DNA of 32,000 nt from Gemmata obscuriglobus (lineage in GTDB: Bacteria; Planctomycetota; Planctomycetia; Gemmatales; Gemmataceae), in contig NZ_CP042911.1 of the NCBI RefSeq assembly GCF_008065095.1, positions 7,410,001-7,442,000 on the forward strand, read 5' to 3'. The position numbers were made by a program, and so were the translations under genes. A model generated the notes under the pieces. That model made no database searches. It worked only from the letters and a program-made list of their open reading frames with translations, and had not been told where the DNA came from. Shown here in pieces: positions 5,130-29,162 of this stretch; position 1 is the first letter of the stretch; each line of letters opens with the position of its first letter.

Positions 5130-6273
5130 TGTACCCTCCGTCCGCCGTGCGCTGGACCCCGATGGAACTCTCGCGGACGATCAGGTGCCCGGGCACGACC
5201 ACCTTCAGGGGCCGCCGCCCCGGGTTCTGGCGCCGCTCCCGCATGAGCCGCACCGCCTGCTCCGCCATACCCTCCGACGGGTACGCGTACGTCGTGATGC
5301 CGATGGCGAACTGCTCCCCGATGGGCAGGTCGTCGGCGCCGACCACGGCCACGTCGTCGGGCACCTTCAGCCCGCGGTTGAGCAGCTCGAAGATGAGCCC
5401 CATCGCGGTGTAGTCCTGGTAGCAGAGCACGCCGTCCAGCCCGTGCTGCCGGATCTGGTCCGCCAGGACCGAGTACGCCTCGCGGTTGGACTGGTCGGAG
5501 TTCTGGTACAGCACCACCGGCTCGAGCTTCGGGCCGGTGCGCGTCTGGTTCGCCGCGTGCAGCGCGAACAGGTACCCGGACACCTTGTCGTTGTGGCTGC
5601 TGGTCGGCGAGGCGACCACGATCCCGACGCGCCGGCGCCCGAGGTCCAGCAGGTGCCGGGTGCAGCGGGCGGCCCCGTCCAGGTCGTCGGCCGCCACCAG
5701 GTCGTGGCTCAGCTCGCGGTTGTTCCCGCGCAGGTTCCGCTCGAGCAGCACCACCGGCAGCCCCTCCGCCCGGCACGCGTCGAGGAACCGCTCGTCCAGC
5801 CGCGTCTCCGGGTCGCTGTGACGGGACGGGAGCAAGAACGCCCCGCCGACGCCGGCGTCCCGGGCCCGCCGCACCGTGATGCGGAGCTGCGTCTCGGTCA
5901 GGTTCTGGGCCAGCGGGAACGCGTCCGATTCGAGGTGCATCGGCTCGCGCCGGGCGAGCGCCTCGAACCCGACCCGGCTCAGGCTGATGGTGGCCTTCTG
6001 CCACGGCCCCGGGGTGAGCCGCAGCACCAGCGCCCACCGGTCTGCGGTCGGCGGCGGCACCCGGACGCTGCCGGACCGCTCGACCGTGTGGATCAGCCCC
6101 TTGTCGCGCAGGATCTGGAGCGCCCGCGACGCGGTCACGACGCTCACCCCGTGCTGCGTGGCGATCCCGCGCACGCTCGGCATCCGGCCGCCGTCCCACT
6201 TGCCGGTGCCGATCTGGACCTCCAGCGCGGCGGCCACTTCCACGTACTTCGGTGCCCCGTTCGACTCGCTCAT
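5119..6273 (-). CDS. transcriptional regulator: GntR-type winged HTH fused to a LacI/periplasmic-binding-protein-like sugar-binding domain
   Basis: 384 aa. The N-terminus (MPSVRGIATQHGVSVVTASRALQILRDKGLI) is a GntR-like HTH. The C-terminal about 270 aa has a LacI-family ligand-domain pattern (GIVVASP..., VVGADD...). Confidence 0.8.
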   Translation of the reverse strand: MSESNGAPKYVEVAAALEVQIGTGKWDGGRMPSVRGIATQHGVSVVTASRALQILRDKGLIHTVERSGSVRVPPPTADRWALVLRLTPGPWQKATISLSRVGFEALARREPMHLESDAFPLAQNLTETQLRITVRRARDAGVGGAFLLPSRHSDPETRLDERFLDACRAEGLPVVLLERNLRGNNRELSHDLVAADDLDGAARCTRHLLDLGRRRVGIVVASPTSSHNDKVSGYLFALHAANQTRTGPKLEPVVLYQNSDQSNREAYSVLADQIRQHGLDGVLCYQDYTAMGLIFELLNRGLKVPDDVAVVGADDLPIGEQFAIGITTYAYPSEGMAEQAVRLMRERRQNPGRRPLKVVVPGHLIVRESSIGVQRTADGGYSVQ

Positions 6274-6358
6274 GAGCGTTCCGTTGGACGGCTGGTGGTG
6301 CCCGGGTTCGCAGCGCCGGTCGTGGCGCGCGGCGGCCCGGTCCGGAACATTCCTATGT

Positions 6359-6410
6359 ACGCGTGTGCGCGGCGGCGCGACTTTCGGACCGGGCCGCCGC
6401 GCACACGCGT
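6359..6410 (-). terminator. GC-rich hairpin directly after the phosphatase gene (18-bp perfect stem), no clear U-tract
   Basis: 6359-6376 acgcgtgtgcgcggcggc is the exact reverse complement of 6393-6410. The right arm abuts the stop codon (tca 6410-6412). An alternative pairing exists, 6331-6344 with 6385-6398. Confidence 0.45.
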
Positions 6411-8311
6411 CAGTCCTTCTTGATCGTGAACTGGTCGAACAGCCGCCCCTCCTGGTCGAACGCGTGCAACTTGAATGTCCCCTGGTGGACCGTGACGTAG
6501 CAGAAGTGGTGGTCCGACCGGAACTGGTCCTTGAAGAACGGCGGGGTCGGTGCGAAGTTCTCCAGTCCGCCGCCGCCGCCGCCGCTGGTCACGTACATGA
6601 TGCCGTTCTTCTGGTCCACCTTGCCGGCGCGGATCGGCCACGACCGCTCGTACACGTGAACGTGGCCGTTGAACACCACGTCCACGTTGTACTTCTCGTA
6701 CAGGGTCACGAAGCTGCGCACCCGCACGTCGCCGTAGGTGCTGCTGCCCTTCCAGGTGTTGCCGTAGTCGTCGTCGTCCGAGCAGTACGCCGGGTGGTGG
6801 TGGTAGCACACCTTCCACTTCGCGGTGGACGCGGCCAGCGCCTTGTCCAGCCACTTGTACTGCTCGCCGTCCGCCTTCAGGTTGCGGCGCGAGTTGGTGT
6901 CGAGCACGAAGAACTCGGCGTTGCCGTAGGCGAACGAGTAGTAGTACTCGGGCTTCGGCAGGGAGAAGTATTTGTAGTATTGCGGGTGATCCTTCTCGTG
7001 GTTGCCGATGGTCGGGAACACCGCCACCCGGCTGAACAGTTCGGCGCACGGCTTGAACAGGTCGCCGGTCCACTGCTGCTTCGAGGCCCCGTCGTCGACC
7101 ACGTCGCCGCAGTGGATCACGAAGTTCGGCCGCCGCTCCCACATCAGCTTTGCGACCTTCCCCGTCACCACCGGGTTGCGCTGCGTGTCGCCGATCACCG
7201 TGAAGCTGTACGCGTCGTTCGGGCCGGGCGCGGTCATGAAGGTCGAGGGCTTGCCCTCCAGTTTGCGGCCCTGCGCGTCGGTGCAGACGACGCGGTAGAA
7301 GTACGTCGTGTTCGGCTCCAAACCCGCGAGCGGCACCTCGCCCATCACGTTCGGCCCCTCCACCTTCGCTTGCAGCTTCGGCGGGAACGTGGGGCCGTAC
7401 TCCACCACCGCGGCGCACGGCTCGTCGGTCTCCCACATGACCGTGACGCCCGTGCGGGTCACGGACTGGAGGTACGGCGCGATCACGAACCGCGGCCCCT
7501 CCGGCACCGCCGACGGCGCCTCCGCGAGCGCGCGGTCGGCCGCGAAGTGCGCCGACACCTGCGCCGCGTCCACGGCGTGCGGGCACAGGGCCACTTCTTT
7601 GATCGCGCCGAACAGCGGGAAGTCCTCGTCCCGGTCCTTGTAGCGCCCGATCACGAGCGGCGCCTCCTTCGCGTGCAGCACGGGCCCGGACTGCGAGTCG
7701 CTCGTGGCGTCCAACTGTCCGTTCACGAACAGCCGCATTTGTTTGCCGTCGTACACCGCCGCGACGTGGTACCACTTGCCCCGCTGGTACTCGGTCTTCG
7801 ACTCCAGGTAGGTCATCTTGCCGTCGCCGTCGTCGGCCCCCTTCGTCGAGAGGCCGAAGAAGAAACGCTTGAGATTCGAGCCCACAACGAAGCCGGCCTC
7901 CGCGGGGCCGTTGTCCTGGAAGCAGCCGAGGATGCCGGCCCACTCGGTCGGCTCGTCGACCCGGACCCACGCCACAACCGAGAGAGCCTCTGTCGGCAGG
8001 AACGGGGCGCCCGCGGTCGCACGCTCCTTAATCATCGCGCCGTCGTCCGGCCCCGTAAGATGCAGAAACGAGACATTTCCGCCCTCGCTCGTGACGACCT
8101 TTGCGCCACCGGTGAGGGTGGCGGGCAGCTTACCGGCCCGGTCGGCGACCGTTTTGGCCGCAAGTTGGTCAACATCGAACACCCAGTGCGCCGAAGCCTT
8201 CAGGTCCGGCTTGGGCGCGGCGGTCAGCGCCTCGTTGCGAACCAGCGCGACCACCAAAACAGCGAGAACACACGCACCGGCCGCGCACACTTTCGCCCAC
8301 GTTTTGGTCAC
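6410..8311 (-). CDS. secreted LamG/concanavalin-like domain fused to a purple-acid-phosphatase-type metallophosphoesterase
   Basis: 633 aa with an N-terminal signal/anchor (CAAGACVLAVLVVALV). Metallophosphoesterase motifs are GDTQ, HCGDVVDDG, GNHE, YHHHP and GHVHVYERS. A beta-sandwich region precedes them. GTG start at 8311. Confidence 0.85.
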   Translation of the reverse strand: MTKTWAKVCAAGACVLAVLVVALVRNEALTAAPKPDLKASAHWVFDVDQLAAKTVADRAGKLPATLTGGAKVVTSEGGNVSFLHLTGPDDGAMIKERATAGAPFLPTEALSVVAWVRVDEPTEWAGILGCFQDNGPAEAGFVVGSNLKRFFFGLSTKGADDGDGKMTYLESKTEYQRGKWYHVAAVYDGKQMRLFVNGQLDATSDSQSGPVLHAKEAPLVIGRYKDRDEDFPLFGAIKEVALCPHAVDAAQVSAHFAADRALAEAPSAVPEGPRFVIAPYLQSVTRTGVTVMWETDEPCAAVVEYGPTFPPKLQAKVEGPNVMGEVPLAGLEPNTTYFYRVVCTDAQGRKLEGKPSTFMTAPGPNDAYSFTVIGDTQRNPVVTGKVAKLMWERRPNFVIHCGDVVDDGASKQQWTGDLFKPCAELFSRVAVFPTIGNHEKDHPQYYKYFSLPKPEYYYSFAYGNAEFFVLDTNSRRNLKADGEQYKWLDKALAASTAKWKVCYHHHPAYCSDDDDYGNTWKGSSTYGDVRVRSFVTLYEKYNVDVVFNGHVHVYERSWPIRAGKVDQKNGIMYVTSGGGGGGLENFAPTPPFFKDQFRSDHHFCYVTVHQGTFKLHAFDQEGRLFDQFTIKKD

Positions 8312-8635
8312 GTGTCACCCGGGGGTCAGCGTATACTGTACTACACAACGTCAAGGCAGGGGCTACACAGAAGTCTAATAACCGCCGGTTCAGACGTGTG
8401 TGTAAAACGGGTGAAATTAACGAACGCGTCTAACCCCGCGACTTGCGCCAACAATTTGCCCGTGCGTCCGTTGAGTTCGTTGACAGTGGCAGTGCGAGAG
8501 TGATACCGTGAACCCAACGGGCACCTCGCGGCCCGAACGCTTACGTCCCCCGCTCACCGCCGGCGCCACCCGCGCCCCGGACCGCCGAAACCTGGAGTCC
8601 GCGGGCGGTTCCGCCCGCACCCGGAGAACCGCAAT

Positions 8636-11107
8636 ATGGCCGTCGCGAAAGGGTACTGGGGTATCGACATCGGGCAGTGCGCCCTCAAAGCCCTTCGGCT
8701 GGAGCTGATCGACGGGAAGCCCACCGCGACCGCGTTCGACTACGTCGAGCACTCGAAGATCCTGTCCCAGCCGGACGCCGACGTGGACCTGCTGATCCGC
8801 GAGGCGCTCGACAAGTTCCTGTCGCGCAACAGCGTCAAGACCGATGAGGTGGCGATCGGGATCGCCGGGCAGTCGGGCCTGGCCCGGTTCGTGAAGCTGC
8901 CGCCGGTCGAAGAAAAGAAGATCGCGGAGATCGTCAAGTTCGAGGCCAAGCAGCAGATCCCATTCCCGCTTGATGAGGTGGAGTGGGACTTCCAGAAGAT
9001 CGGCGGCGGCGAGGCGGTGGACGGGTTCGCGCTGGAGACCGAGATCGGCCTGTTCGCGATGAAGCGGGACGTGATCTCGCGGTACATGGGGTACTTCGCC
9101 GGCAGCAAGATCGAGGTCCACCTGATCCAGATGTCGCCGCTGGCGCTGGTCAACTTCGCCACCTACGAGCTGATCAAGCCGAAGGGCGACCCGGCCGCCG
9201 CCGAGGAGGACGACACCCCGCGGGGCAAGAGCCGCTGCACCGTGGTGATGGACGTGGGCACGGACGCGTCGAACCTGATCATCACCGACGGCGCGAAGAT
9301 CATCTGGCAGCGGCCGATCCCGCTGGGCGGCAACAACTTCACCCGCGCGCTGACGAAGGAGCTGAAGCTCACGTTCGCCAAGGCCGAGCACCTCAAGCGG
9401 AACGCCGCCAAGAGCCCGGACATGGCGAGCATCCTCAAGGCGATCAAGCCGGTGCTCACCGACTTCGTCGGCGAGGTGCAGCGGTCGCTGGGGTACTTCA
9501 CCAACACGCACCGCAACGCGCACGTCGCGCACATGGTGGGGCTGGGCAGCGCGTTCAAGCTCCCGGGCCTCCAGAAGTACCTGGCGGACAAGCTGTCGCT
9601 GGAGGTGAAGAAGCCGGCCCGGTTCGAGAAGCTGACCGGCGACGCGGTGCTCAGCGACCCGCTGTTCCAGGAGAACCTGCTCACGTTCCCGATCGCCTAC
9701 GGGCTGGCCCTGCAGGGCCTCGGGCAGGCGCGGCTCACCACCAACCTGCTGCCCCAGAGCATCCGGATGGACCGCGTGATCCGCTCGAAGAAGCCGTACG
9801 CGGCGGCGGCGGCGGCGACCCTGCTGCTGGGGCTGGGCGGCATGGCGGCCGGCTTCTCCAGCCCGCACGCGGCCCTGACCGACAAGAACGTCGACAAGGG
9901 CATCCAGATGACCAAGGACGCCGGGAGCAAGTACTCGGCCCAGGAGAGCTCGTTCAGCACCAAGCTGGCCGAGAAGAACAAGAAGCAGGACGAGACCAAG
10001 CTCATCATCGCCGGGCAGGAGGAGCGGCTCAACTGGCCGCGGTTCACGGAGGTGCTCACCGCCAGCCTGCCGCGCCCCGGGCTCGAGAAGGACGGCGGCA
10101 ACCTCACCGAGGTGGGCGGCACCGTCAACGACAGCCCGGACCTCCCGCCCATCGACCAGACGAGGCTGTGGAACGGGGCGACGGGCCAGAAGGCGTACGA
10201 CTGGTTCGTGCAGCGGATGAGCGAGGGGGTGCCCATCGAGCGGGCCATTGAGGACTCCAACTCGAAGTACCCCGAGGCGCTCGCGTTCCTGAACATCGAA
10301 ACCGTCCACACCCGCTGGGTGACCAACGCGTCCGCGTTCCTCGCCGCCGCCGACGACCAAGTGCAGTTGCGGTTCGGCAACCCGATCGCGGACTGGATGA
10401 AGAACGACGAGCGGGAGAAGGACGCCGAGAAGGGGCGGTGGAAGCCGAAGGCGGCCGAGGGCGGGGCGTGGGTGATCGAGGTACGCGGGTACACGGACCA
10501 CACCGGCGGCCGGCGGTTCATCGAGCAGTCGCTGCTCCGCAACCTGCAGCGGCTCGACGAGTTCGCCAAGAAAGATAAGCTGGGCCGAGAAAAGGTGGGC
10601 GAGTTCATCGTGGGGGTGCCCGACCCGGTGAAGGGGAAAACGAGCCACGCGTTCGTGTACGGGGTGTGGCCCGTCTACAACCCGCAGCCCGGCCAGTTCG
10701 TCAACATCGGGCGCGGCTCGTACCTGGACGGGTTGGTGGGCGGGGCCGGGGCGGGCGGCCCGGGTGGCTTCGGAGGCCCCGGCGGCTTCGGCAGCCCCGG
10801 CGGCGGGGACGGTGAAACGGGGCGGGGGTCGCTCGGCCCGCCCCCGCCCAGCAGCATGGGTCCCGGCGCGATGCCCGGCGGCATGGGCTCGGGATCGGGC
10901 GCAGACGGCGCGACGGCCGCGCCCGTGGCCCTCGCCCCCGCGTGGAGCGGGTTGGGCCGGAGCGGCGGGGCCGCCGGGGCGCCGGCGGGCGTCGCCAAGC
11001 GGCCGCCCGGCGAGGTCAAGACCCGGTTCGAGTTCGTCGTGATGATGCTCTGGCGCGAGCCGACCCCGTCCACCCCGGCTGCTGCGGCGGCGGCGACAAC
11101 GCCGTGA
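8636..11107 (+). CDS. pilM: PilM (actin-like ATPase) fused to a PilN-like segment (NLLP peptide, TM helix, coiled coil, alpha/beta domain) with a C-terminal Gly/Pro-rich loop; GspL-like architecture
   Basis: 823 aa. PilM blocks are GIDIGQCALKALRLE, IAGQSGLARFVKLPP, KFEAKQQIPFPLDEVEWDFQ, VVMDVGTDASNLIITDG..PLGGNNFT, VQRSLGYF, VGLGSAFKLPGLQKYL and IAYGLALQG. TTNLLPQS follows at 9737-9760, with NLLP at 9743-9754 (aa 370-373), then a TM helix at about 9796-9858. GGAG lies 9 nt upstream of the ATG. Confidence 0.9.
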   Translation: MAVAKGYWGIDIGQCALKALRLELIDGKPTATAFDYVEHSKILSQPDADVDLLIREALDKFLSRNSVKTDEVAIGIAGQSGLARFVKLPPVEEKKIAEIVKFEAKQQIPFPLDEVEWDFQKIGGGEAVDGFALETEIGLFAMKRDVISRYMGYFAGSKIEVHLIQMSPLALVNFATYELIKPKGDPAAAEEDDTPRGKSRCTVVMDVGTDASNLIITDGAKIIWQRPIPLGGNNFTRALTKELKLTFAKAEHLKRNAAKSPDMASILKAIKPVLTDFVGEVQRSLGYFTNTHRNAHVAHMVGLGSAFKLPGLQKYLADKLSLEVKKPARFEKLTGDAVLSDPLFQENLLTFPIAYGLALQGLGQARLTTNLLPQSIRMDRVIRSKKPYAAAAAATLLLGLGGMAAGFSSPHAALTDKNVDKGIQMTKDAGSKYSAQESSFSTKLAEKNKKQDETKLIIAGQEERLNWPRFTEVLTASLPRPGLEKDGGNLTEVGGTVNDSPDLPPIDQTRLWNGATGQKAYDWFVQRMSEGVPIERAIEDSNSKYPEALAFLNIETVHTRWVTNASAFLAAADDQVQLRFGNPIADWMKNDEREKDAEKGRWKPKAAEGGAWVIEVRGYTDHTGGRRFIEQSLLRNLQRLDEFAKKDKLGREKVGEFIVGVPDPVKGKTSHAFVYGVWPVYNPQPGQFVNIGRGSYLDGLVGGAGAGGPGGFGGPGGFGSPGGGDGETGRGSLGPPPPSSMGPGAMPGGMGSGSGADGATAAPVALAPAWSGLGRSGGAAGAPAGVAKRPPGEVKTRFEFVVMMLWREPTPSTPAAAAAATTP

Positions 11108-11329
11108 CGCCAGAAAACGGGGAAACGAACCGGAATTGATCCCGAGCCGGCGACGGCCCGGGCGGCGGCAGGAGCCGGCGGGCAGACAGCCCCCGGAGCC
11201 GCCCCGCTCCGAGTGCGGCGCGGCTCCGCTTCGAATTCGTTACGGCGCCCGCGCCCATTATCGAGCCACAAAACACCCGCCGCTCTGCGGCCGCCCGTTG
11301 CCGAACACCGCCTAGTGAGGTTCGCAGGC

Positions 11330-13483
11330 ATGAAAAGCGAAAGTCCGGTCAAGAAGCACCACTTCTGGATCCTCTGCGGCGTGGTCCCGCTCGTCACGCT
11401 CATCGGTGTGCTCGTGGTGGACGCCAAGGTGGGCAGCCGGATCGATGCCCGCCAGAAGGACATCACCGACGCCGAGAGCGACATCGGCAAGAAACAGAAC
11501 GTCAAGCCGGTCAAGCTCATCAGCGAGCTCGACAAGATCTCCGCACTGGTGGAGCGGAAGCAGGGCGACCTGCACAAAGAGAACTGGGAGCAGCAGAAGG
11601 CCCTGTTCAGTTGGCCCGGCCGCTCCGAACGGTTCAAGCAGTTGGAAGACCGCCAGCTCCCGTTCGGCAGCAACCTCCCGGACCTGACCGCGCTCCACGG
11701 CGAGTTCCAGAAGGCCGAGACCTACCTGCACGAGTACTCGTCGGCGAGCGTCCGGCCCGACGGCACGGTCTCGCCGGGCACCGGGATGGCCGACCTGATG
11801 GCCCCGACCCAGTTCAACGGCGGCTGGCAGAGCGTGCTGCGGCACGTCAACGACTTCGGCCAGGTGTTCATCACGAAGGACCAGGCGTGGCTGATCCTTG
11901 AAGACATGTGGGTGCAGCGGTCCCTCCTGGCCGGGCTACGCTCCGTGAACACCGAGATGGGGAAGTTCGAGCCGGTAAAAACCAACGACGGGGGCAAAGG
12001 CGCGGCGAACCAGACCAAGGCCCGGAAGTTCCGCAACCGCATCTGGGAGGTGGAACTGGACATCGTGCCCGGGGACACCAACGGGCAGTTGCGCCTCGTC
12101 GGCAGCCTCACCAACATATCGGAACGGCTCCAGTTGTTCGGCAAGTCACCGGACGGCGGCAACGGCATGGCCCTGAACGTGTGGCTGTCCAGCAACCCCA
12201 GCGCCCAGCCGGTGGTGTTCAAGATCGGCGGCGACTTCCTGCCCGGGCGGGGGGCCGTGAAAACCGTCCCCAAAGACGGGGGGGCGCAGACGGTGCCGGC
12301 CAACGTGAAGGTTGTCGGGACGGGGCAAGACAAGGACCTTAACATCCTGCCCCCCGAGATCACTCTCGATCGGGCCGAAATCGTGCGCGTCGAACAGATC
12401 TATGACGTGCGCACCGTGCCCCTCAAGCGGATCGACTGGCTGGTGATCGGCAACCAGGCCGCGGTCGACGCTCGCAACGTCGAACCGATCGCCACCACCG
12501 GACTGCTGATGCCGCTCTCCACCGCCAACGGCGGCCTGTTCTCCGAGGCGTTCACCAAGGACCCGAACGCGGTCGACCCGAACGCTCCGGGCGGTTCCGG
12601 GTCGATGGGTCCTGGCGGGGCCGCGATGCCGGGCGGCCCCGCGATGCCGGGCGGCCCCGCGATGCCGGGCGGGCCGGGGCGCGGCATGCCGGGCGCGATC
12701 GACGGAGGGATGAGCGGCCCGGGTGGAGCCGGTGGGGCCGCCGGTGCCGCCCGGGCGATCGGTGGCGGGCCGCTGGCCGCGATCGCCGACGGGAACAAGA
12801 AGCGGTATCTGGCCGTGACCCAGCAGGTGCGCCGGATGCCGGTCGCGGTGGTGGTGGTGATCGACCAGGCGTACATCCAGGACGTACTCTTGGCCTTGTC
12901 GAACTCCCCGCTGCGGTTCCAGATCACCCAGGTGAACTGGACGCGGTTCCGCGGCAGCCTGGAAGGGCTGGGGATCACCCCGGGTTCCGGCGGGGGCGGC
13001 AACATTGACTACGGGAGCGGCGGTCCGGCGTCGTTCGGCGAGGAGTTCGGGCGGGGGGGCGGGGGCATCGGCCCGGGGCCGGGGCGTCCGCTCGGGGCCG
13101 GTGGAACCGGGTTGCCCAGCCCGATGGGTCCCGGCGGCTTTCCGGGGCCGGGTAGCCTGCCAGGAGGTCCGGGTAGCATGCCCGGAGGGCCTTTCGGTGG
13201 CCCCCCGGGTGGCTCGTCAGGCTACCCCGGTGGGGGCGGTTCTTCGGTGATGAGCGAATCGCAGATCACCTCGGGGCTCGTCGAGTTGAGCGTGTACGGG
13301 GTCGTCTCACTGTACGAAGCTCCCAAGGCCCCCGCGCCGGACGCGACCGCCGCGCCGAATACGTCGGCACCGAACACACCCGCGCCGATGCCGCCGGTGC
13401 CGAACACGCCCGCGCCAAACACCCCCGCGCCGAATACGCCGGCGCCCAACGCCCCCAAGATGCGCCGCCGCGTCCGTCGGTGA
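11330..13483 (+). CDS. large bitopic membrane protein, PilO-like topology, with two Gly/Pro/Met-rich loops and an (APNTP)n polybasic C-terminus
   Basis: 717 aa from ATG 11330, with GTGAGG upstream; the ORF track starts at 11213 inside the spacer. It has a short basic N-terminus, a TM helix (FWILCGVVPLVTLIGVLVV) and a coiled coil. A strand-helix-strand block RMPVAVVVVIDQAYIQDVLLALSNSPLRFQITQVNW is present. The PilO assignment is inference. Confidence 0.75.
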   Translation: MKSESPVKKHHFWILCGVVPLVTLIGVLVVDAKVGSRIDARQKDITDAESDIGKKQNVKPVKLISELDKISALVERKQGDLHKENWEQQKALFSWPGRSERFKQLEDRQLPFGSNLPDLTALHGEFQKAETYLHEYSSASVRPDGTVSPGTGMADLMAPTQFNGGWQSVLRHVNDFGQVFITKDQAWLILEDMWVQRSLLAGLRSVNTEMGKFEPVKTNDGGKGAANQTKARKFRNRIWEVELDIVPGDTNGQLRLVGSLTNISERLQLFGKSPDGGNGMALNVWLSSNPSAQPVVFKIGGDFLPGRGAVKTVPKDGGAQTVPANVKVVGTGQDKDLNILPPEITLDRAEIVRVEQIYDVRTVPLKRIDWLVIGNQAAVDARNVEPIATTGLLMPLSTANGGLFSEAFTKDPNAVDPNAPGGSGSMGPGGAAMPGGPAMPGGPAMPGGPGRGMPGAIDGGMSGPGGAGGAAGAARAIGGGPLAAIADGNKKRYLAVTQQVRRMPVAVVVVIDQAYIQDVLLALSNSPLRFQITQVNWTRFRGSLEGLGITPGSGGGGNIDYGSGGPASFGEEFGRGGGGIGPGPGRPLGAGGTGLPSPMGPGGFPGPGSLPGGPGSMPGGPFGGPPGGSSGYPGGGGSSVMSESQITSGLVELSVYGVVSLYEAPKAPAPDATAAPNTSAPNTPAPMPPVPNTPAPNTPAPNTPAPNAPKMRRRVRR
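12623..12676 (+). repeat. in-frame 18-bp tandem repeat (about 3 copies) encoding (AMPGGP)n
   Basis: gcgatgccgggcggcccc at 12623-12640 is identical to 12641-12658. The third copy, 12659-12676, has 2 mismatches. Confidence 0.9.
13352..13456 (+). repeat. in-frame 15-bp tandem repeat, 7 degenerate copies encoding APNT(S/P)-type pentapeptides
   Basis: The units translate as APNTS APNTP APMPP VPNTP APNTP APNTP APNAP, followed by KMRRRVRR and the stop. Confidence 0.9.
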
Positions 13484-13618
13484 CGCCACGCCTCCCGCGC
13501 CCGGCGCGGGAGCCCGCGAATCACAATCGACCCCAACCGGCTCCAACATTCCCCGGGCGCCCCCCGTTAATCAACCGGCGACCCGGGCGCGAACACCGGC
13601 CCACACGAGGGACCAACC

Positions 13619-16150
13619 GTGGCGAAAGCGAAGATCAAATTCGACCCGAAGGACTTCTTGCTCAAAAAGGGCGAGTACCTGGTGATGGGAGTGGCCGGCT
13701 TTTGCCTGGTCGTGCTGCTCATCTGGGGTGTGACCAAGTGGAGCAGCGCCAAGGACCCCACCGAGATCGCCAGTAAGCTCGCCCAAAGTGCCAACAACCT
13801 CACGCAGAAGATCCAGAACGATTCGGCTTCGCCCAAGGACCTGGAAGAGATCCAGCCGCTCCCGTTCATCGTCAAGCCGCCGATCAACAAGCCGGCGAAG
13901 ATCAGCGACTTCCCGATCCAGGTGCCGCTGTTCGACCCGACGGCGCAGCCGAACACGAAGCGGGAAAACCCGTTCGTGCTCACCGTGGGGGAGTACCAGG
14001 TGGACCTTACCCGGTCCGCGATGCCCGGGTACGACATCATCTACAACAACGACAACGAGCCGCTGATCGCGGTGCTCGCCACCAAGGTCAAGAACCCGCT
14101 GGACGCGGCCAAAATCAAGCAGGTGGGGGACGTTCTCAAAAACAAGGGAATACAAGGCAAGAAGGTGACCAAGCAGCCGCAGCAACCGCAGCCGGGGGGG
14201 CAGTTCGGCCCCGGCGGTTCGCCCGGGCAGTTCGGCCCCGGCGGACCGGGCGGGTTTCCCGGACAGGTCGGCCCCGGCGGATCGCCCGGGCTGGGTGGTC
14301 CGGGGCGCGGCGGACCGCCGGGGGCGGGCGGTGAAGGCCCGATGCCCGGGTCGCCGTTCGGCATGCCCGGCGGCATGTTCGACAACAACGGCCGACGCAA
14401 CGATGAAGGTCGGGTGCTCACCTACGTGCCGCTGGCGGACATCGACAAGGAACTCGCGGCCGGCCGGAACCCGGCGCTGACCGTGATCCCGGTGCGGCTG
14501 GTCACCATCCACGCGGCGGTGCCCTACAAGCAGCAACTGGAGGAGGCGCGGCGGGCGTTGCGCCTGTCGTCCCCGGTGCCGATCCCGGACGGCAAGGGCG
14601 GGTTCCGGAACCAGGCCGAACTCGACGCCGCCGAAGCCGAGGCCCGGCGCTTTGTGTGGTACGACGGGTTCGACATCCAGCGCCGCGAAACGCAGGTCAT
14701 GAGCGACGGGCAGGTGCGAGTCATTCAGGAGTGGGGCGAGGTGGTGCCCAAGGACAACCGGTCCGACTTCAACTACAAGTTCGAAGAGAAGTACATCGAG
14801 AAGATCCACACCCGGGCCGTCGGGCACCACTACGACGAGGGCTTCCTCCCGTATTTCCTGAAGCCCGAGATGATGCTGTCGATGCCGATGCCGCTCCTGG
14901 CCCCGGACCTGAAAGTGAAGTACCCCGAGATCCGGCTCAAGTCGATCACCGACAACATCAAGAAGCTGGAGGACGCCGCCAAGCCCAAGGTGACGGCGTC
15001 AGAGCTGGCGAAGCAGTTGCAAGGCCAGACCTCGAGGATCGGCCTCTACGGCGGGTCGACGAACACTGCCGGCCTGTTCGGCAACGGCGGCGACTCGTTC
15101 GGCGGGGTGAGCATGCCGGGCGGCTCCCCGGGGGCGATGCCGGGCGGGCCGATGGGCATTCGTCCGGGTCCGGGCGGTTCGCCGGGAGCGCCGCCGCTGC
15201 CGGGCGGTTCCAGCGGCCCGGGCGGGCCCGGCGGCCCCGGCGGGTTCGGCTTCGGCGCCGGCGGCCCCCCGCCGGTCGAGGTCGAGAACTTCCTGCTCCG
15301 GTTCGTGGACTGTGACGTGCAACCCGGGCGCACCTACCAGTACCGCGTCCGGCTCAAGATGCAGAACCCGAACTACCAGCAGGACAAGCTGGTCGCCGAC
15401 CCGGCGTCCGCCAAGGTGCAGGTGCTGTACAGCAAATGGAAGCAGCTCGACCGGCCGATCACGGTGCCGCCCGAATCGTTCCTGTACGCGTACGACACGA
15501 AGGCGTACCGCGAGAACACCGAAACCGAGTACGCCGGCCAGAAAGAGCTGCTGAAGCGGCTCCAGTTGCAGGACCACCAAGCGGTCGTGCAAATGGCCTC
15601 CTGGATGGAACAGGTGCGCACCGAGTCCGGCGGCAAACGCGAGCCGGTGGGCGCGTGGGTGATGGCCGAAATGCCGGTGGGCCGGTGCGAGTACATCGGC
15701 CGCAAGCAGTTCGTGAAGCTGCCGCTGTGGTCGTCCGAATCGCAACCGCCCCAGTACGTGCTCCGCGAGGTGCCCGAGAAGATCATTCCGGCGAAGGGCA
15801 AGGAGGCGCCGCAGCCGAAGGGCTGGCTGGTGGACTTCTCTACCAAGTCGATCCTGGTGGACTTCGAAGGCGGCCGGGTGAAGAGCCGGTTCACCATCGG
15901 GTTCGACGACAAGGGCAACCTGATGAACAGGACCCGGGCGGTCGACGAGGACGCGTCTACGGAGATGTTGATTGTGCGCCCGAATGGCGAACTGCTGGTG
16001 CGCAGCAGCCGGGCGGACGAGAACGACGAGAACCGCACCGACATTGCCTCGAAATGGACCGACTGGCTGAAGATGGTCGAGTCCCGGAGGATCGGTGGTG
16101 GCGGGATGGGCGACGAGAACAACCCGTTCGGGCCGAAAAAGCAGCCATAA
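13619..16150 (+). CDS. large bitopic membrane protein with two Gly/Pro/Met/Phe-rich loops and C-terminal beta-rich domains
   Basis: 843 aa. GTG start at 13619 lies 7 nt after GAGGGA (13606-13611). The N-terminal TM helix is YLVMGVAGFCLVVLLIWGV. A beta-sandwich-like motif FLLRFVDCDVQPGRTYQYRVRLKMQNPNY is present. No named family recognised. Confidence 0.75.
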   Translation: MAKAKIKFDPKDFLLKKGEYLVMGVAGFCLVVLLIWGVTKWSSAKDPTEIASKLAQSANNLTQKIQNDSASPKDLEEIQPLPFIVKPPINKPAKISDFPIQVPLFDPTAQPNTKRENPFVLTVGEYQVDLTRSAMPGYDIIYNNDNEPLIAVLATKVKNPLDAAKIKQVGDVLKNKGIQGKKVTKQPQQPQPGGQFGPGGSPGQFGPGGPGGFPGQVGPGGSPGLGGPGRGGPPGAGGEGPMPGSPFGMPGGMFDNNGRRNDEGRVLTYVPLADIDKELAAGRNPALTVIPVRLVTIHAAVPYKQQLEEARRALRLSSPVPIPDGKGGFRNQAELDAAEAEARRFVWYDGFDIQRRETQVMSDGQVRVIQEWGEVVPKDNRSDFNYKFEEKYIEKIHTRAVGHHYDEGFLPYFLKPEMMLSMPMPLLAPDLKVKYPEIRLKSITDNIKKLEDAAKPKVTASELAKQLQGQTSRIGLYGGSTNTAGLFGNGGDSFGGVSMPGGSPGAMPGGPMGIRPGPGGSPGAPPLPGGSSGPGGPGGPGGFGFGAGGPPPVEVENFLLRFVDCDVQPGRTYQYRVRLKMQNPNYQQDKLVADPASAKVQVLYSKWKQLDRPITVPPESFLYAYDTKAYRENTETEYAGQKELLKRLQLQDHQAVVQMASWMEQVRTESGGKREPVGAWVMAEMPVGRCEYIGRKQFVKLPLWSSESQPPQYVLREVPEKIIPAKGKEAPQPKGWLVDFSTKSILVDFEGGRVKSRFTIGFDDKGNLMNRTRAVDEDASTEMLIVRPNGELLVRSSRADENDENRTDIASKWTDWLKMVESRRIGGGGMGDENNPFGPKKQP

Positions 16151-16175
16151 CCTTGCGGTCTTGACCGCCAGCGAG

Positions 16176-16207
16176 CGCCGCCGGAAGTTCCGGCGGCGTT
16201 TTTTATT
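16176..16207 (+). terminator. canonical intrinsic terminator closing the three-gene operon
   Basis: The stem is cgccgccgg (16176-16184) paired with ccggcggcg (16190-16198), with loop aagtt. The T-tract ttttttatt (16199-16207) follows. It begins 26 nt after the stop at 16150. Confidence 0.85.
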
Positions 16208-19710: not shown

Positions 19711-20940
19711 ATGACCCGTTGGTTCAGCAAGCGGTGGGCGTGGGCCGCGGCGGTCGGCGCCACCATGACCGTGTCGCTCGCGGCGGTCGGTGCGGACGCG
19801 CCGCCCCAGAAGGTCGGCGCGACTATCTCGCTCGACATCGACGGCAAGGGCGAGCGCCAGTTTAAGGTGGTCAAGTGCGAGAAGCAGGCGGACGGCTCCT
19901 ACCACTCCGAACTCAAGGACACCAAGTCCGGGGAGACGATCACGCTCGTGGACCAACCGGACGCGGCCCCCGCGAAGGGAACCGGTGCGCCGGAGCCGGC
20001 CAAGCCCGTCGAGCCGCCGAAGGCGAAGCCGCGGACCAATGACCCGCTGACCCCGCCGCTCGCGGCAGCGATGCCCGATGCCGCGAAAGACAAAGAGAAG
20101 GACAAGGAAAAAGAGAAAGACAAGCGACCGATTCTGGGTCGCGTGTTCGGCGACCGGGACAAGTCCCCGGAACCGAACGAACCGGCGAAGAAGCCCGGGC
20201 TGTTCACCCGCGTCTTCGGTCCGAAGAAGGCGCCGGGGGCAAACGCGCCCGCCATGACGGCGCCGGCAGGCGCCAAGCCGACGAGCGCAACACCGCCGGC
20301 CGTGATCCCAACCCCCGCGGGAGGACTGACCGGCGGGAGCACCACGGCCGAGCCGCCGCGCGTGATGCCGACGAGGCCTGTAACGCCACCACCGGCGACG
20401 ACGGCACCGAGCATCCCGGCACCCGCACCGGCGGTGTCAACACCGTCGATCCCCGCCCCGCTCCCGGCGGCGCCGGCAACGACCGCGCCGCCGTCGATCC
20501 CACTGCCGCTGCCGGCCCCTCCGGCCGGCGGGAGCGGGCTGCCGCCGATCCCGATTCCGCCCGGCGGGACGTCGTCAACGAAGCCGCTCCAGGTCGTGGT
20601 GCCGGCGGGGTACGTCCCGGCACAAGTGGCGTTCGACCGCGACGTGGAGCCGTTCGTGATCGCCCTTCAATCGATGGCGGCCCCGTCGGCGCGGCTGACG
20701 GCCGCGAAGGGTTTGGCCGAGGGCAGGCACGGCTCGACGGACGGGGTGAAGGCGGTACTGTTCAAGGCCGCCCAGGCGGACCCGTGCGGCGAGGTGCGGG
20801 CGGCGTGCATCGCCCACCTGTGCAAACTCGGGTACTTCGACCAGCAGTTCCTGGGCCACATCCAAACGGCGTGCGGCGACCCGGACCAGCAAGTGAGCGC
20901 GGCCGCCAAGGACGCGTGCGCGAAGATGTTGCGGAAGTGA
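19711..20940 (+). CDS. secreted Pro/Ala/Lys-rich protein with a C-terminal HEAT-like repeat region
   Basis: A perfect AAGGAGG (19697-19703) lies 7 nt upstream of the ATG. The signal peptide is WAWAAAVGATMTVSLAAVGADA. A KDKEKDKEKEKDK run and a long Pro-rich linker follow. The C-terminal helical repeats carry Cys (EVRAACIAHLCKLG...VSAAAKDACAKML). Confidence 0.75.
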   Translation: MTRWFSKRWAWAAAVGATMTVSLAAVGADAPPQKVGATISLDIDGKGERQFKVVKCEKQADGSYHSELKDTKSGETITLVDQPDAAPAKGTGAPEPAKPVEPPKAKPRTNDPLTPPLAAAMPDAAKDKEKDKEKEKDKRPILGRVFGDRDKSPEPNEPAKKPGLFTRVFGPKKAPGANAPAMTAPAGAKPTSATPPAVIPTPAGGLTGGSTTAEPPRVMPTRPVTPPPATTAPSIPAPAPAVSTPSIPAPLPAAPATTAPPSIPLPLPAPPAGGSGLPPIPIPPGGTSSTKPLQVVVPAGYVPAQVAFDRDVEPFVIALQSMAAPSARLTAAKGLAEGRHGSTDGVKAVLFKAAQADPCGEVRAACIAHLCKLGYFDQQFLGHIQTACGDPDQQVSAAAKDACAKMLRK

Positions 20941-20998: not shown

Positions 20999-22215
20999 AG
21001 GGCTCACGCACTATGAAGTGGTGGCCGTGTAAGGGTTTGTGCGTATCGCGGGGTCAGGAGGACACCGATGGCTTTGCCCCTGACCAGCGTCTTTGCGGAC
21101 CTGCCGGACCCGCGAACCGAGACGGCGAACAAGATCCACACGCTGACGGACATCCTGACCATCGCCACCTGTGCGGTGATCGCCGGGGCCGAGGGATGGG
21201 AGGACATCGCCGAGTACGGCCGTTCTAAGGAAGCCTTCTTCCGCCGGTTCCTCGAGCTCAAGAACGGCGTCCCGAGCCACGACACCTTCTACCGGGTGTT
21301 CACCAAGCTCGACCCCGACGCCTTCGCCGACCGGTTCGCCCGATGGACGGCCGAGGTGTGCGAGGCGACCGGGCTGACCCGACCCGACATCGACGGTCCG
21401 ACCCACGTCGCGGTGGACGGGAAGAGCGCCCGCCGGTCCGCCAAGCCGACGTTCTCCGGGTGCCTGCACCTGGTCGAGGTGTGGGACATCGGGAGCAACC
21501 TGATCCTCGGCCAGCGGTCGGTGCCCGAGGGCGGGCACGAGATCACCACGTTCCGGGACGTGCTCGCCACCCTGGACCTGACGGGGGCGGTGGTGACGCT
21601 GGACGCCGCCGGGTGCCAGACCGAGACGCTGGAGGTGATCCGGGCGCGGGGCGGGGAGTACGTGGTGTGCGTGAAGGGGAACCAACCGACCCTGCGGGAC
21701 GCCATCGCCGGGGTGTTCGACCGGGCCGGCGAAGCAGAATTCGCCGGGTGCGACGGGCACACGTCGGTGACCGACGCGCACGGCCGGCACGAGGAGCGGA
21801 ATGTGACGGTGGTGCACGACCCAGACGGGCTGCCGGCCGGTTGGGCGGGTGTCGGCTCGGTCGCGTTGGTGTGCCGGGACCGGCAGGTGAAGGGGAAGGC
21901 GAACGAGAGCACCGCCCACTACTACCTGAGCAGCCTGCGGGTCGGCGCGGCCGAGCTGGCCGGGTACATCCGCGGGCACTGGCACATCGAGTCGATGCAC
22001 TGGGTTCTGGACGTGGCGTTCCGGGAGGACGAGAGCCGGACGCGAGTCGGGCACGCGGGTGCCAACCTGGGGATGATCCGGCGGGTGGCCGTGTCCCTGC
22101 TCAAGCGCGCCGGGAAGAAGGGGAGTATCCACACCCGACGGCTCCGGGCCGGATGGGACGACCAGTACATGGCTCAAGTGCTCCAAGGACTCTCCACGCA
22201 TAGTGCGTAAGCCCT
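20999..22215 (+). mobile_element. ISAs1-family insertion sequence, apparently intact (about 1.22 kb)
   Basis: Terminal inverted repeats are (gt)agggctcacgcactatg at the left end and catagtgcgtaagccct(ac) at the right, with 1 mismatch. The flanking direct repeat acccgcccgtgt occurs at 20987-20998 and 22216-22227, giving an 8-12 bp TSD depending on where the IR ends. There is a single transposase ORF. Confidence 0.9.
21068..22210 (+). CDS. ISAs1-family DDE transposase (H-repeat-associated-protein type)
   Basis: 380 aa. The N-terminal block is FADLPDPRTETANKIHTLTDILTIATCAVIAGAEGWEDIAEYG...FLELKNGVPSHDTFYRVF. The DDE region is VAVDGKSARRS, VTLDAAGCQ and IRGHWHIESMHWVLDVAFREDESR. The stop lies inside the right IR. 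Confidence 0.93.
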   Translation: MALPLTSVFADLPDPRTETANKIHTLTDILTIATCAVIAGAEGWEDIAEYGRSKEAFFRRFLELKNGVPSHDTFYRVFTKLDPDAFADRFARWTAEVCEATGLTRPDIDGPTHVAVDGKSARRSAKPTFSGCLHLVEVWDIGSNLILGQRSVPEGGHEITTFRDVLATLDLTGAVVTLDAAGCQTETLEVIRARGGEYVVCVKGNQPTLRDAIAGVFDRAGEAEFAGCDGHTSVTDAHGRHEERNVTVVHDPDGLPAGWAGVGSVALVCRDRQVKGKANESTAHYYLSSLRVGAAELAGYIRGHWHIESMHWVLDVAFREDESRTRVGHAGANLGMIRRVAVSLLKRAGKKGSIHTRRLRAGWDDQYMAQVLQGLSTHSA

Positions 22216-27885: not shown

Positions 27886-28003
27886 CGGTTGAAGAGTATT
27901 CACGCCGTATTCTGTAGCCGGCCTCTGTGAGGCCGGTGCGACACAGGTGGTATCGCACCGGCCTCACAGAGGCCGGCTACAGAATGCGGTTACCCTTCGA
28001 CCG
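27886..28003. repeat. 118-bp nested palindrome with the same outer motif as 24346-24493
   Basis: The inner arms are 27905-27941 and 27953-27989 (37 bp with 1 mismatch; 33 bp perfect at 27909-27941 / 27953-27985). The outer pair is cggttgaagagta (27886-27898) with tacccttcgaccg (27991-28003), 11/13. Each inner arm contains ccggcctc-tgt-gaggccgg. Confidence 0.8.
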
Positions 28004-29162
28004 TATCCGGTGTGAGGCGCGCGTTTTGGGCTACGCACTTTCTACCATCTGGTACGAGCGGCAGCGGTTCCTGCCCGCGATCCTCGCCGTGGCGTTCAGC
28101 GCGGTGCTGGTCGCGGTGCAGTCGGGGCTGGTGCTCGGGCTGCTGTCGGTGCTGTCGATGCCGGTGGACCGCGCGCCGGCCGACGTGTGGGTCGCCTTCC
28201 CGTCCGTCCGGAGCGTCGATTTCGGGCGGCCCATCCCGGAGCGGTGGGTGTCCCGGCTGGCGGCCCAGCCCGAAGTGGACCGGGCGGAAGGCGCGGTCAT
28301 CGGGTTCGCGCCGTGGACCCGACAAGGCGCGAACCCGGCCCAGACCACAACGCAAGTGTGCAACGTCGTCGGCGCGCGGCTGGACCCGCAGTCGCTCGCC
28401 GCGCCGGACGTGGTGCGCAACAGCCCCGAACTGCTCGCCGCCCTGGCCGAGCCGATGGCGGTGGCGGTGGACGAGTCCGAACTCGACCGGCTCGGGGTCC
28501 GTGGGGTCGGGGACACCGCGGAGGTCGTCGGCCGGCGGGTGCGGGTAGCGGGGCTCGTCTCCGGGTGCCGGAGCCTCGGCGGGCCGTACCTGTTTTGCTC
28601 GCTCGAAACCGCCCGGGTGCTGCTGGGCTACCAGCCGGATCAGGTGACGTACCTCGTCGCGCGGTGCAAGAACCCGGGCGACGCCGGGGCGGCGGCGCGG
28701 CGCATGAACGGCTACCCGCAACTGAGCGCGTTCACGTCCGACGAGTTCTCTGCCCGGTCCCGGCTGCACTGGCTCACGACCACGAAGGCCGGGGTGGCGA
28801 TCGGGTTCACCGCGCTGCTCGGGCTGCTGGTGGGCGCCGTCGTGACGAGCCAGACGCTGTTCGCCGCGACCGCCGCCAGCCAGCGCGAGTTCGCGACGCT
28901 GCGCGCGATGGGCATCCCGAAGTGGCGGCTGAAGTTCTCGGTGCTGGTGCAATCGTTCTGGGTCGGGCTGTTCGGGCTGGCGCTCGCCGCCCCGATCACC
29001 CTCGCGCTGGCCGAAGGGGCGAACGCGCTGGGAACGGCGGTGCGGCTGCACCCCTACATCCTGCTCGGCTCCGCGGCGGTCACCATGCTGATGGCGCTCG
29101 GGTCCGGGATGGCGGCGCTGCGGTCCTTCCAGGGCGTGGACCCGGCGCACAACATTCGGTAG
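27984..29162 (+). CDS. ABC transporter permease, FtsX/MacB-like (4 TM with a large periplasmic domain)
   Basis: The FtsX-type C-terminal block is LLGLLVGAVVTSQTLFAATAASQREFATLRAMGIPKWRLKFSVLVQSFWVGL. TM1 is FLPAILAVAFSAVLVAVQSGLVLGLL. The start is uncertain: ATG 27984 is chosen because ATG 27927 lies inside the palindrome. Confidence 0.8.
   Translation: MRLPFDRIRCEARVLGYALSTIWYERQRFLPAILAVAFSAVLVAVQSGLVLGLLSVLSMPVDRAPADVWVAFPSVRSVDFGRPIPERWVSRLAAQPEVDRAEGAVIGFAPWTRQGANPAQTTTQVCNVVGARLDPQSLAAPDVVRNSPELLAALAEPMAVAVDESELDRLGVRGVGDTAEVVGRRVRVAGLVSGCRSLGGPYLFCSLETARVLLGYQPDQVTYLVARCKNPGDAGAAARRMNGYPQLSAFTSDEFSARSRLHWLTTTKAGVAIGFTALLGLLVGAVVTSQTLFAATAASQREFATLRAMGIPKWRLKFSVLVQSFWVGLFGLALAAPITLALAEGANALGTAVRLHPYILLGSAAVTMLMALGSGMAALRSFQGVDPAHNIR

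Follow-up and report, generated by a model that had tools for sequence, protein, structure and literature searches.

The DNA analysed here is a 32-kb window of the Gemmata obscuriglobus genome (coordinates below are positions in this window), and the subject is a set of three co-directional open reading frames (ORFs) on its plus strand, named A, B and C, which encode a PilM domain joined to a PilN-type membrane anchor and two large single-pass membrane proteins (Table 1). A preliminary description, made from the sequence alone, had noted three such ORFs of 823, 717 and 843 residues, each with a Shine-Dalgarno (SD)-like site, separated by spacers with GC-rich hairpins and no T-tract, and followed by the only canonical terminator; ORF calls, a terminator scan and inspection of the sequence agree with it in all of these points. 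The SD-like sites lie 6-9 nt 5' of each gene, and the A-B and B-C spacers, neither of which has a T-run, measure 222 and 135 nt, respectively. Protein C is a 100% match to G. obscuriglobus GobsT_62340. For gene B, an alternative upstream GTG at 11213 would give 756 residues; both the family consensus, MKxxxLKKHHFWIL, and the DNA conserved in G. algarum favour the ATG start.

The terminator 3' of gene C has a 13-bp stem (16173-16201, nine G-C pairs) followed by TTTTTATT and is the sole strong intrinsic terminator on the plus strand between 8000 and 21000. Terminator-like sites are not in excess in this interval (10 found versus 11.0 expected from shuffles), so this one is distinguished by its stem length only. 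On the 5' side of gene A, the 324 nt from 8312 to 8635 begin with a less G+C-rich stretch (about 8330-8440) and are likely the promoter or leader of the gene; a scan for the sigma-70 consensus reported no site before gene A. Neither RNA elements nor tRNAs were found in the window.

Table 1. Features of the A-B-C locus (window coordinates)
Feature	Position	Strand	Description	Basis
SD-like GGAG before gene A	8623..8626	+	9 nt before the ATG	Read from sequence
Gene A	8636..11107	+	823 amino acids, PilM-PilN-type fusion	ORF; PilM_2 E 3.7e-29; TIGR01175 153.9 bits
Cytoplasmic PilM (actin-like) domain of A	8660..9715	+	Residues 9-360	Pfam span; aligns with 3JC8, 2YCH and 5EOX
TNLLP motif of A	9740..9754	+	Residues 369-373, PilN-type N-terminal peptide	Aligns with RINLLP in 5EOU
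Single transmembrane helix of A	9800..9856	+	Residues 389-407, upstream flank rich in lysine and arginine	Hydropathy scan
Periplasmic part of A	9857..11104	+	Helix, globular region, Gly/Pro-rich loop 692-756, final conserved strand RFEFVVMMLWREP	Conservation profile
SD-like GTGAGG before gene B	11315..11320	+	Kept in G. algarum	Read from sequence
Gene B	11330..13483	+	717 amino acids from ATG, single-pass membrane protein	ORF; AlphaFold model
SD-like GAGGGA before gene C	13607..13612	+		Read from sequence
Gene C	13619..16150	+	843 amino acids, GTG start, single-pass membrane protein	ORF; AlphaFold model
Intrinsic terminator 3' of gene C	16173..16207	+	13-bp stem and T-run	Terminator scan; sequence

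Protein A and its two partner proteins

The N-terminal part of protein A is recognised by two PilM models, Pfam PF11104 (PilM_2; 102.2 bits with a cutoff of 27, E 3.7e-29, residues 9-360) and NCBIfam TIGR01175 (153.9 bits, cutoff 133), and a PDB search aligned it with solved PilM structures (3JC8, E 1.3e-25; 2YCH, E 1.4e-18), in which all of the PilM blocks pointed out in the preliminary description find their place. The predicted nucleotide-binding motifs of the actin/Hsp70 fold are carried by A and are invariant in the A-family alignment, namely GIDIG (D11, G13), MDVGTD (G208, D210) and GLG (G302-G304). Judged by these matches, A holds a genuine PilM domain. The chain then runs without a stop into RLTTNLLP and on into a transmembrane (TM) helix, so PilM and a PilN-type anchor are, as read from the sequence, one polypeptide with a GspL-like layout. 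The same peptide (as TTNLLPQS) had been identified with the PilN N-terminus in the preliminary description, which also proposed the fusion; HMMER aligned RLTTNLLP with RINLLP, the PilN peptide in 5EOU, an engineered PilM-PilN(1-12) chimera, TNLLP is invariant in 50 A-family members, and the hydropathy scan placed one TM helix behind it.

The identification with PilN holds for this peptide and the TM helix, and not for the ~415 residues that follow in the periplasm, which are not recognisable as PilN: the PilN family model matched none of the 50 A-family C-terminal halves at E <= 1, no GspL-type Pfam or NCBIfam family reached E <= 1 with A or was found in those 50 halves, and a PDB profile search with the periplasmic part returned nothing relevant. 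Relatives of this part were sought in 1.84 billion representative proteins, and the complete ones among the 282 found are always fused after ~360 N-terminal residues. Unfused, PilN-like versions were considered and rejected; the short matches are N-terminally truncated fragments that start inside the PilM C-terminal helix. The top NCBIfam match of A is the Akkermansia Amuc_1101 family, named as a "PilM-like pilus complex" protein (NF045709; residues 38-477), and it spans the TM and helix region at 184.8 bits, with an equivalog cutoff of 650. FtsA models gave less: the FtsA Pfam family scored 29.8 bits, below its cutoff of 31.8, and the ftsA equivalog only 23 bits.

Each of the three proteins has exactly one predicted TM helix, with lysine and arginine enriched on its N-terminal side and hence an N-in topology by hydropathy and charge; the helix lies at about residues 10-32 in B and 20-39 in C. 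According to hydropathy and the AlphaFold models, both B and C consist of a short basic N-terminal tail, this TM helix, a long N-terminal helix and further domains. In the model of B (predicted local distance difference test (pLDDT) 75.5, predicted template modelling score (pTM) 0.70), the long helix leads to a domain of helices, a beta-sandwich (212-373) and a small alpha/beta module (486-545) completed by a strand at 650-662; the module comprises strand 500-512, helix 513-524 and strand 531-539, and the last strand follows a disordered loop of ~100 residues. The model of C (pLDDT 75.7, pTM 0.70) contains helices and an alpha/beta domain (267-370), then a helical region and, at the C-terminus, beta-rich domains (558-800).

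The preliminary description had called B and C PilO-like and had likened a strand-helix-strand block of B to the PilO core. The topology and, in the AlphaFold model, the block itself are reproduced; the likeness to PilO is not supported. Pfam and NCBIfam gave no match to proteins B and C themselves. Models of PilO (PF04350), PilN and GspM (PF04612) matched none of 61 B members and none of 52 C members, PilP not being separately tested, and PDB profile searches with the two families were empty, as was a search with the loop-deleted C-terminal module of B even at E <= 10. When the whole models were compared with PDB by Foldseek, in which the ~100-residue loop splits the module of B, none matched at E <= 0.001; only generic beta-sandwich matches appeared (E >= 0.06), with no PilO, PilN or GspM among the 50 matches listed. 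Homology of B and C to PilO or GspM is rejected by the family-model scans and PDB profile searches, and what they are seen to share with PilO is predicted topology only: a tail that is short and basic, followed by one TM helix and then a long helix. Two further relationships were tried and discarded. Against the Akkermansia models Amuc_1100_fam (E 0.12) and Amuc_1099_fam (E 0.023), the B and C families gave one weak member match each (<=14 bits), and the Amuc_1099_fam match covers residues 16-81, that is, the TM anchor only, and is unusable as evidence. Internal paralogy of the A periplasmic part, B and C, as between PilN and PilO, was examined by hhalign with 13 domain crops; only TM helices scored, at a probability of at most 38%. 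The 84 homologues of B and 81 of C are all hypothetical proteins without Pfam domains, the few with an organism name being from planctomycetes. B and C thus apparently represent new lineage-specific families with new periplasmic domains.

The cytoplasmic tails of both proteins are conserved. Invariant positions are K9 and W13 in B (11330-11356) and G18 in C (13619-13675); H11 and F12 of B and K7, L15 and E19 of C are almost invariant. Like the PilN tail, which plays that role for PilM, these tails may be docking peptides for the PilM domain or for another cytoplasmic partner.

A feature common to the three families is a set of disordered Gly/Pro-rich segments, located at residues 692-756 of A (nt 10709-10903), 416-482 and 546-643 of B, and 184-256 and 490-558 of C. 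They contain about 39% glycine and 16-20% proline plus methionine, serine and alanine, and they are conserved as a feature in all three families with median lengths of 68-90 residues. In A and B such a loop is inserted right before the last beta-strand of the C-terminal domain. One guess is that they act as an elastic spacer in a wide periplasm.

Conservation and gene neighbourhood in planctomycetes

One genome per species was scanned; at least 560 contigs encode a relative of A, and the best 80 were used to compare loci. A family profile search retrieved 6947 database proteins at E <= 1e-30, a threshold that may also admit ordinary PilM proteins; the best 120 of the 6947 are all 747-930 residues long and annotated as PilM, and none of those listed comes from Planctopirus. 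Five independent loci carry gene calls; in each, a PilM-type protein of 813-904 residues is followed by Pfam-less proteins of 616-777 and 735-777 residues (in one of the five, the first protein also lacks a Pfam match on record). A, B and C lie on the same strand in every locus long enough, with 60 complete B and 51 complete C ORFs and no counterexample.

The surroundings of the trio are not conserved. No pilus or secretion genes occur within 10 kb on either side in the five called loci, whose flanks are wholly different in each, and clustering of all flanking ORFs put no family in more than 9 loci out of about 83; recurrent neighbour genes had been sought there as clues to partners, and none was found. 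The A-B-C trio is the only conserved unit at about 80 planctomycete loci, and one operon is the best explanation for the three genes. In the window, Pfam scans of the larger ORFs found no secretin, PilB, PilC, PilT, prepilin or prepilin peptidase, in line with the preliminary description; a pilQ secretin and a PilP lipoprotein are likewise absent from these ORFs and from the regions within 10 kb of the five loci. The same source had suggested comparing synteny across planctomycetes and had called the operon an orphan. The A-B-C order does recur without neighbouring pilus genes, and by position the operon stands alone in all loci long enough; orphan is too strong for the whole genome, since PilB, PilC, PilD, PilQ and PilT genes are reported elsewhere in Gemmataceae genomes (PMC7397252).

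Identity between lineages amounts to 64-86% in the PilM domain, in comparisons that give only 16-49% for B, for C and for the A periplasmic region, and B and C fall to 16-23% across lineages that keep the A-B-C order. The contrast suggests a strongly constrained cytoplasmic interface together with fast-evolving periplasmic parts. Along the DNA it appears as a steep and unusual constraint gradient inside the operon, from conserved (8636-9730) to divergent (9731-16150).

TraDIS (transposon-directed insertion site sequencing) tables for Planctopirus limnophila list Plim_0076 (PilM), Plim_0077 and Plim_0078 (hypothetical) as essential (PMC10632474 supplement). Their insertion indices are 0.006, 0.016 and 0.011, 6- to 45-fold lower than the 0.09-0.28 of neighbouring genes, and their orthologues are found in planctomycetes only (PMC10632474). 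We infer that Plim_0076-78 are the orthologues of A-B-C because they show the same pattern, a PilM gene with two hypothetical genes after it that are restricted to planctomycetes; the trio may then be essential, too. The role beyond a classical pilus that the preliminary description had thought conceivable is made plausible by these essential calls for the "PilM" gene Plim_0076 and the next two genes. In the same organism, the GspE/PilT-like/GspE/GspF-type cluster Plim_0410-0407 is essential save for Plim_0409 (PilT-like, "unclear"), and the essential set Plim_0410-0401 also takes in six planctomycete-only genes, while the two annotated secretins, Plim_0794 and Plim_3839, constitute an "only non-essential" paralogue group (PMC10632474). 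A cluster of the Plim_0401-0410 type is a candidate partner of the trio. Plim_0076-78 are not mentioned in the main text of PMC10632474, and we found no other paper that discusses them; a literature search on the trio, on PilM in planctomycetes and on the crateriform machinery also found no paper discussing the trio. PilM has no entry in the essential-genome paper on V. spinosum or in its supplements.

Possible roles of the trio

The type IV filament class includes type IV pili and type II secretion. We propose, with a probability of roughly one half, that A, B and C are the inner-membrane, periplasm-spanning assembly platform of a planctomycete machine of this class. A would supply the cytoplasmic actin-like PilM domain, with the PilN-type anchor peptide attached in cis in the manner of GspL. 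If it behaves as PilM and GspL do, this domain may dock PilB/GspE-type ATPases and a PilC/GspF-type membrane protein encoded elsewhere in the genome. B and C would be lineage-specific single-pass partners in the positions of PilO/PilP or GspM/GspC, and their large periplasmic domains and elastic Gly/Pro-rich loops could bridge the wide and variable planctomycete periplasm. The proposal would imply a physical A:B:C complex and a partnership with the ATPase and platform genes, and the trio is probably required for growth.

GspL, which works with the single-pass proteins GspM and GspC, is accepted as the counterpart of PilM and PilN fused together, and A resembles it in that one chain joins an actin-like domain in the cytoplasm, through a single TM helix, to a domain in the periplasm. 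It differs from GspL in scoring as PilM, with no GspL Pfam family at E <= 1, and in keeping the PilN-type NLLP peptide; its periplasmic part is also far larger and unrelated in sequence, and no gsp genes lie nearby. The PilMNOP complexes of Myxococcus xanthus (3JC8), Pseudomonas aeruginosa (5EOU/5EOX) and Thermus thermophilus (2YCH) contain a homologous PilM domain (E 1e-25 to 1e-10), and the likeness extends to the PilN N-terminal motif of A and to the next genes, whose single-pass products each have a short cytoplasmic tail, then a TM helix and a long helix. In contrast to PilMNOP, PilM and the PilN-type anchor are fused in A, no pilQ follows the trio, and the partners, roughly 200 residues in PilMNOP, have 717 (B) and 843 (C) residues here without PilO or PilN signal in sequence or fold; the putative counterpart of the trio is, moreover, scored essential.

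A third comparison is with the Akkermansia cluster Amuc_1098-1102, in which the PilM-like Amuc_1101 occurs with hypothetical envelope proteins and the abundant PilQ secretin Amuc_1098 (PMC5332112, PMC4960237). Both clusters have a PilM-like fusion gene beside genes for hypothetical envelope proteins (PMC5332112), Amuc_1101 is the top NCBIfam match of A, and the hosts belong to the same superphylum. The Akkermansia profiles are shorter, about 608 positions for Amuc_1101 and about 320 for the partners, and the score of A (184.8) is far below the cutoff of 650. The secretin has no equivalent in the window's larger ORFs or in the five called loci, and B and C do not match the Amuc_1100 and Amuc_1099 models beyond very weak matches.

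Several observations weigh against a filament-class platform. In the five called loci and among the window's larger ORFs, the trio has no linked gene for a pilin, an ATPase, PilC/GspF or a secretin, so that the link to filament machines comes from the homology of the A domain alone. B and C have no detectable relationship to PilO, GspM, PilN, GspC, PilP (not separately tested) or the Amuc_1099/1100 families, the only matches being of 14 bits or weaker. The orthology of Plim_0076-78 with A-B-C is drawn from the gene pattern and not from sequence. Because cells can normally do without type IV pili and type II secretion, essentiality fits such a platform awkwardly. Finally, the essential isocitrate dehydrogenase gene (icd, Plim_0079) lies directly after Plim_0078 (PMC10632474), and transposon polarity could mimic essentiality of the genes before it.

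The main alternative is a co-opted morphogenetic or division scaffold that makes no pilus-like filament and organises an essential envelope process, consisting of a membrane-anchored, FtsA-like PilM domain and two large periplasmic partners. Budding division, the coordination of peptidoglycan and outer membrane, and the invagination of the cytoplasmic membrane are candidate processes, and the model is FtsA with FtsQ, FtsL and FtsB, which likewise combines an actin-fold membrane-associated protein with single-pass coiled-coil or periplasmic proteins and is essential as a set. Planctomycetia have no ftsZ, ftsA or ftsB (PMC10632474), and a scaffold would account for an essential call on the probable counterpart where the annotated secretins are "only non-essential" (PMC10632474). 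It would also suit the usual dispensability of pilus genes, the unusually conserved cytoplasmic domain, the absence of any linkage between the trio and pilus genes in the loci examined, and B and C domains without relatives among known pilus parts. However, the resemblance to the Fts proteins is one of analogy only: the FtsA models stay below their cutoffs for A (29.8 versus 31.8 for Pfam; 23 bits for the equivalog), no POTRA or FtsB/FtsL signal is present in B or C, and the NLLP peptide and the TIGR01175 and Amuc_1101 matches tie A to pilus-type PilM rather than to FtsA. The essential GspE/GspF-type cluster of the same organism offers natural filament-machine partners, and the essentiality itself may be a polarity artefact. 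We regard a scaffold of this kind as rather unlikely.

A more conventional explanation is that the trio is an ordinary, dispensable type IV pilus alignment complex, the planctomycete PilMNOP for the crateriform fibres, with its partners scattered over the genome and the essential call an artefact. Pili emerging from crateriform structures have been described in planctomycetes, their machinery being unknown (PMC12673574), the PilB/C/D/Q/T genes of Gemmataceae could provide the missing parts (PMC7397252), and the position of icd makes polarity possible. Against this explanation stand insertion indices that are 6- to 45-fold below those of the neighbours for all three genes, and a second pilus/type II secretion-type cluster that is independently essential, its last gene included. 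B and C fail every PilO test (PilP not separately tested), and such conservation of the cytoplasmic domain would be unusual for accessory pilus genes. An ordinary alignment complex is accordingly judged improbable. That the PilM-like gene and its neighbours B and C have no functional relationship and are grouped by inherited gene order only would agree with the failure to detect homology between the three proteins outside their TM helices; this is scarcely credible given an A-B-C order kept while the flanks change and B and C diverge to 16-23% identity, a single terminator after gene C, the topology and unusual Gly/Pro-rich loops common to all three, and the same essentiality call for all three putative counterparts.

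In planctomycetes, cell division proceeds without FtsZ or FtsA, the periplasm is enlarged, and there are crateriform pits and fibres. A bolder reading, which we put forward only tentatively and consider doubtful, is that the trio forms the core of a machine specific to Planctomycetota that is essential, spans the envelope and works without a secretin, a pilus alignment complex having been repurposed. It might couple cytoplasmic ATP-driven events to division, budding or outer-envelope organisation in cells without FtsZ and FtsA. Alternatively it might anchor the apparatus of the crateriform structures, where the five conserved, disordered Gly/Pro-rich segments per A:B:C set could make up a periplasmic element with elastic or gel-like properties.

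The PilM annotation of A and the principle of a GspL-like PilM-PilN fusion are already known. We did not find described the conserved stand-alone trio, the two partner families without relatives, the Gly/Pro-rich loops or the apparent essentiality. The trio is widespread in planctomycetes and combines a highly constrained PilM domain with two partners that have no annotation, Pfam family or structural relatives. If the orthology and the essentiality hold, it would be an unusual case of a pilus/secretion-type platform needed for viability and a concrete genetic handle on an open question of planctomycete cell biology. B and C provide two new protein families with confident models for structural and interaction studies.

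The other genes of the window can be described briefly. The G+C content of 63-72% gives rise to many spurious antisense ORFs. Upstream of gene A, a divergent gene (6410-8311, minus strand) encodes a protein with Laminin_G_3, purple-acid-phosphatase N-terminal and metallophosphatase domains; it is a neighbour in the closest Gemmata loci only and is therefore placed outside the module, and the 875-residue ORF opposite it (5876-8503, plus strand) is a high-GC artefact. Downstream, on the plus strand, 19711-20940 encodes a protein of 409 residues. A signal-like stretch is apparent at its N-terminus, the long middle part is of low complexity and rich in Pro, Ala and Thr, and the C-terminal part weakly matches HEAT repeats, at a score under the Pfam cutoff. 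The gene is followed by an IS4-type DDE transposase gene (21068-22210, plus strand; DDE_Tnp_1_assoc and DDE_Tnp_1), a mobile element ~5 kb downstream of the operon, and by a gene for a MacB/FtsX-type permease (27927-29162, plus strand; MacB_PCD and FtsX domains) unrelated to the trio.

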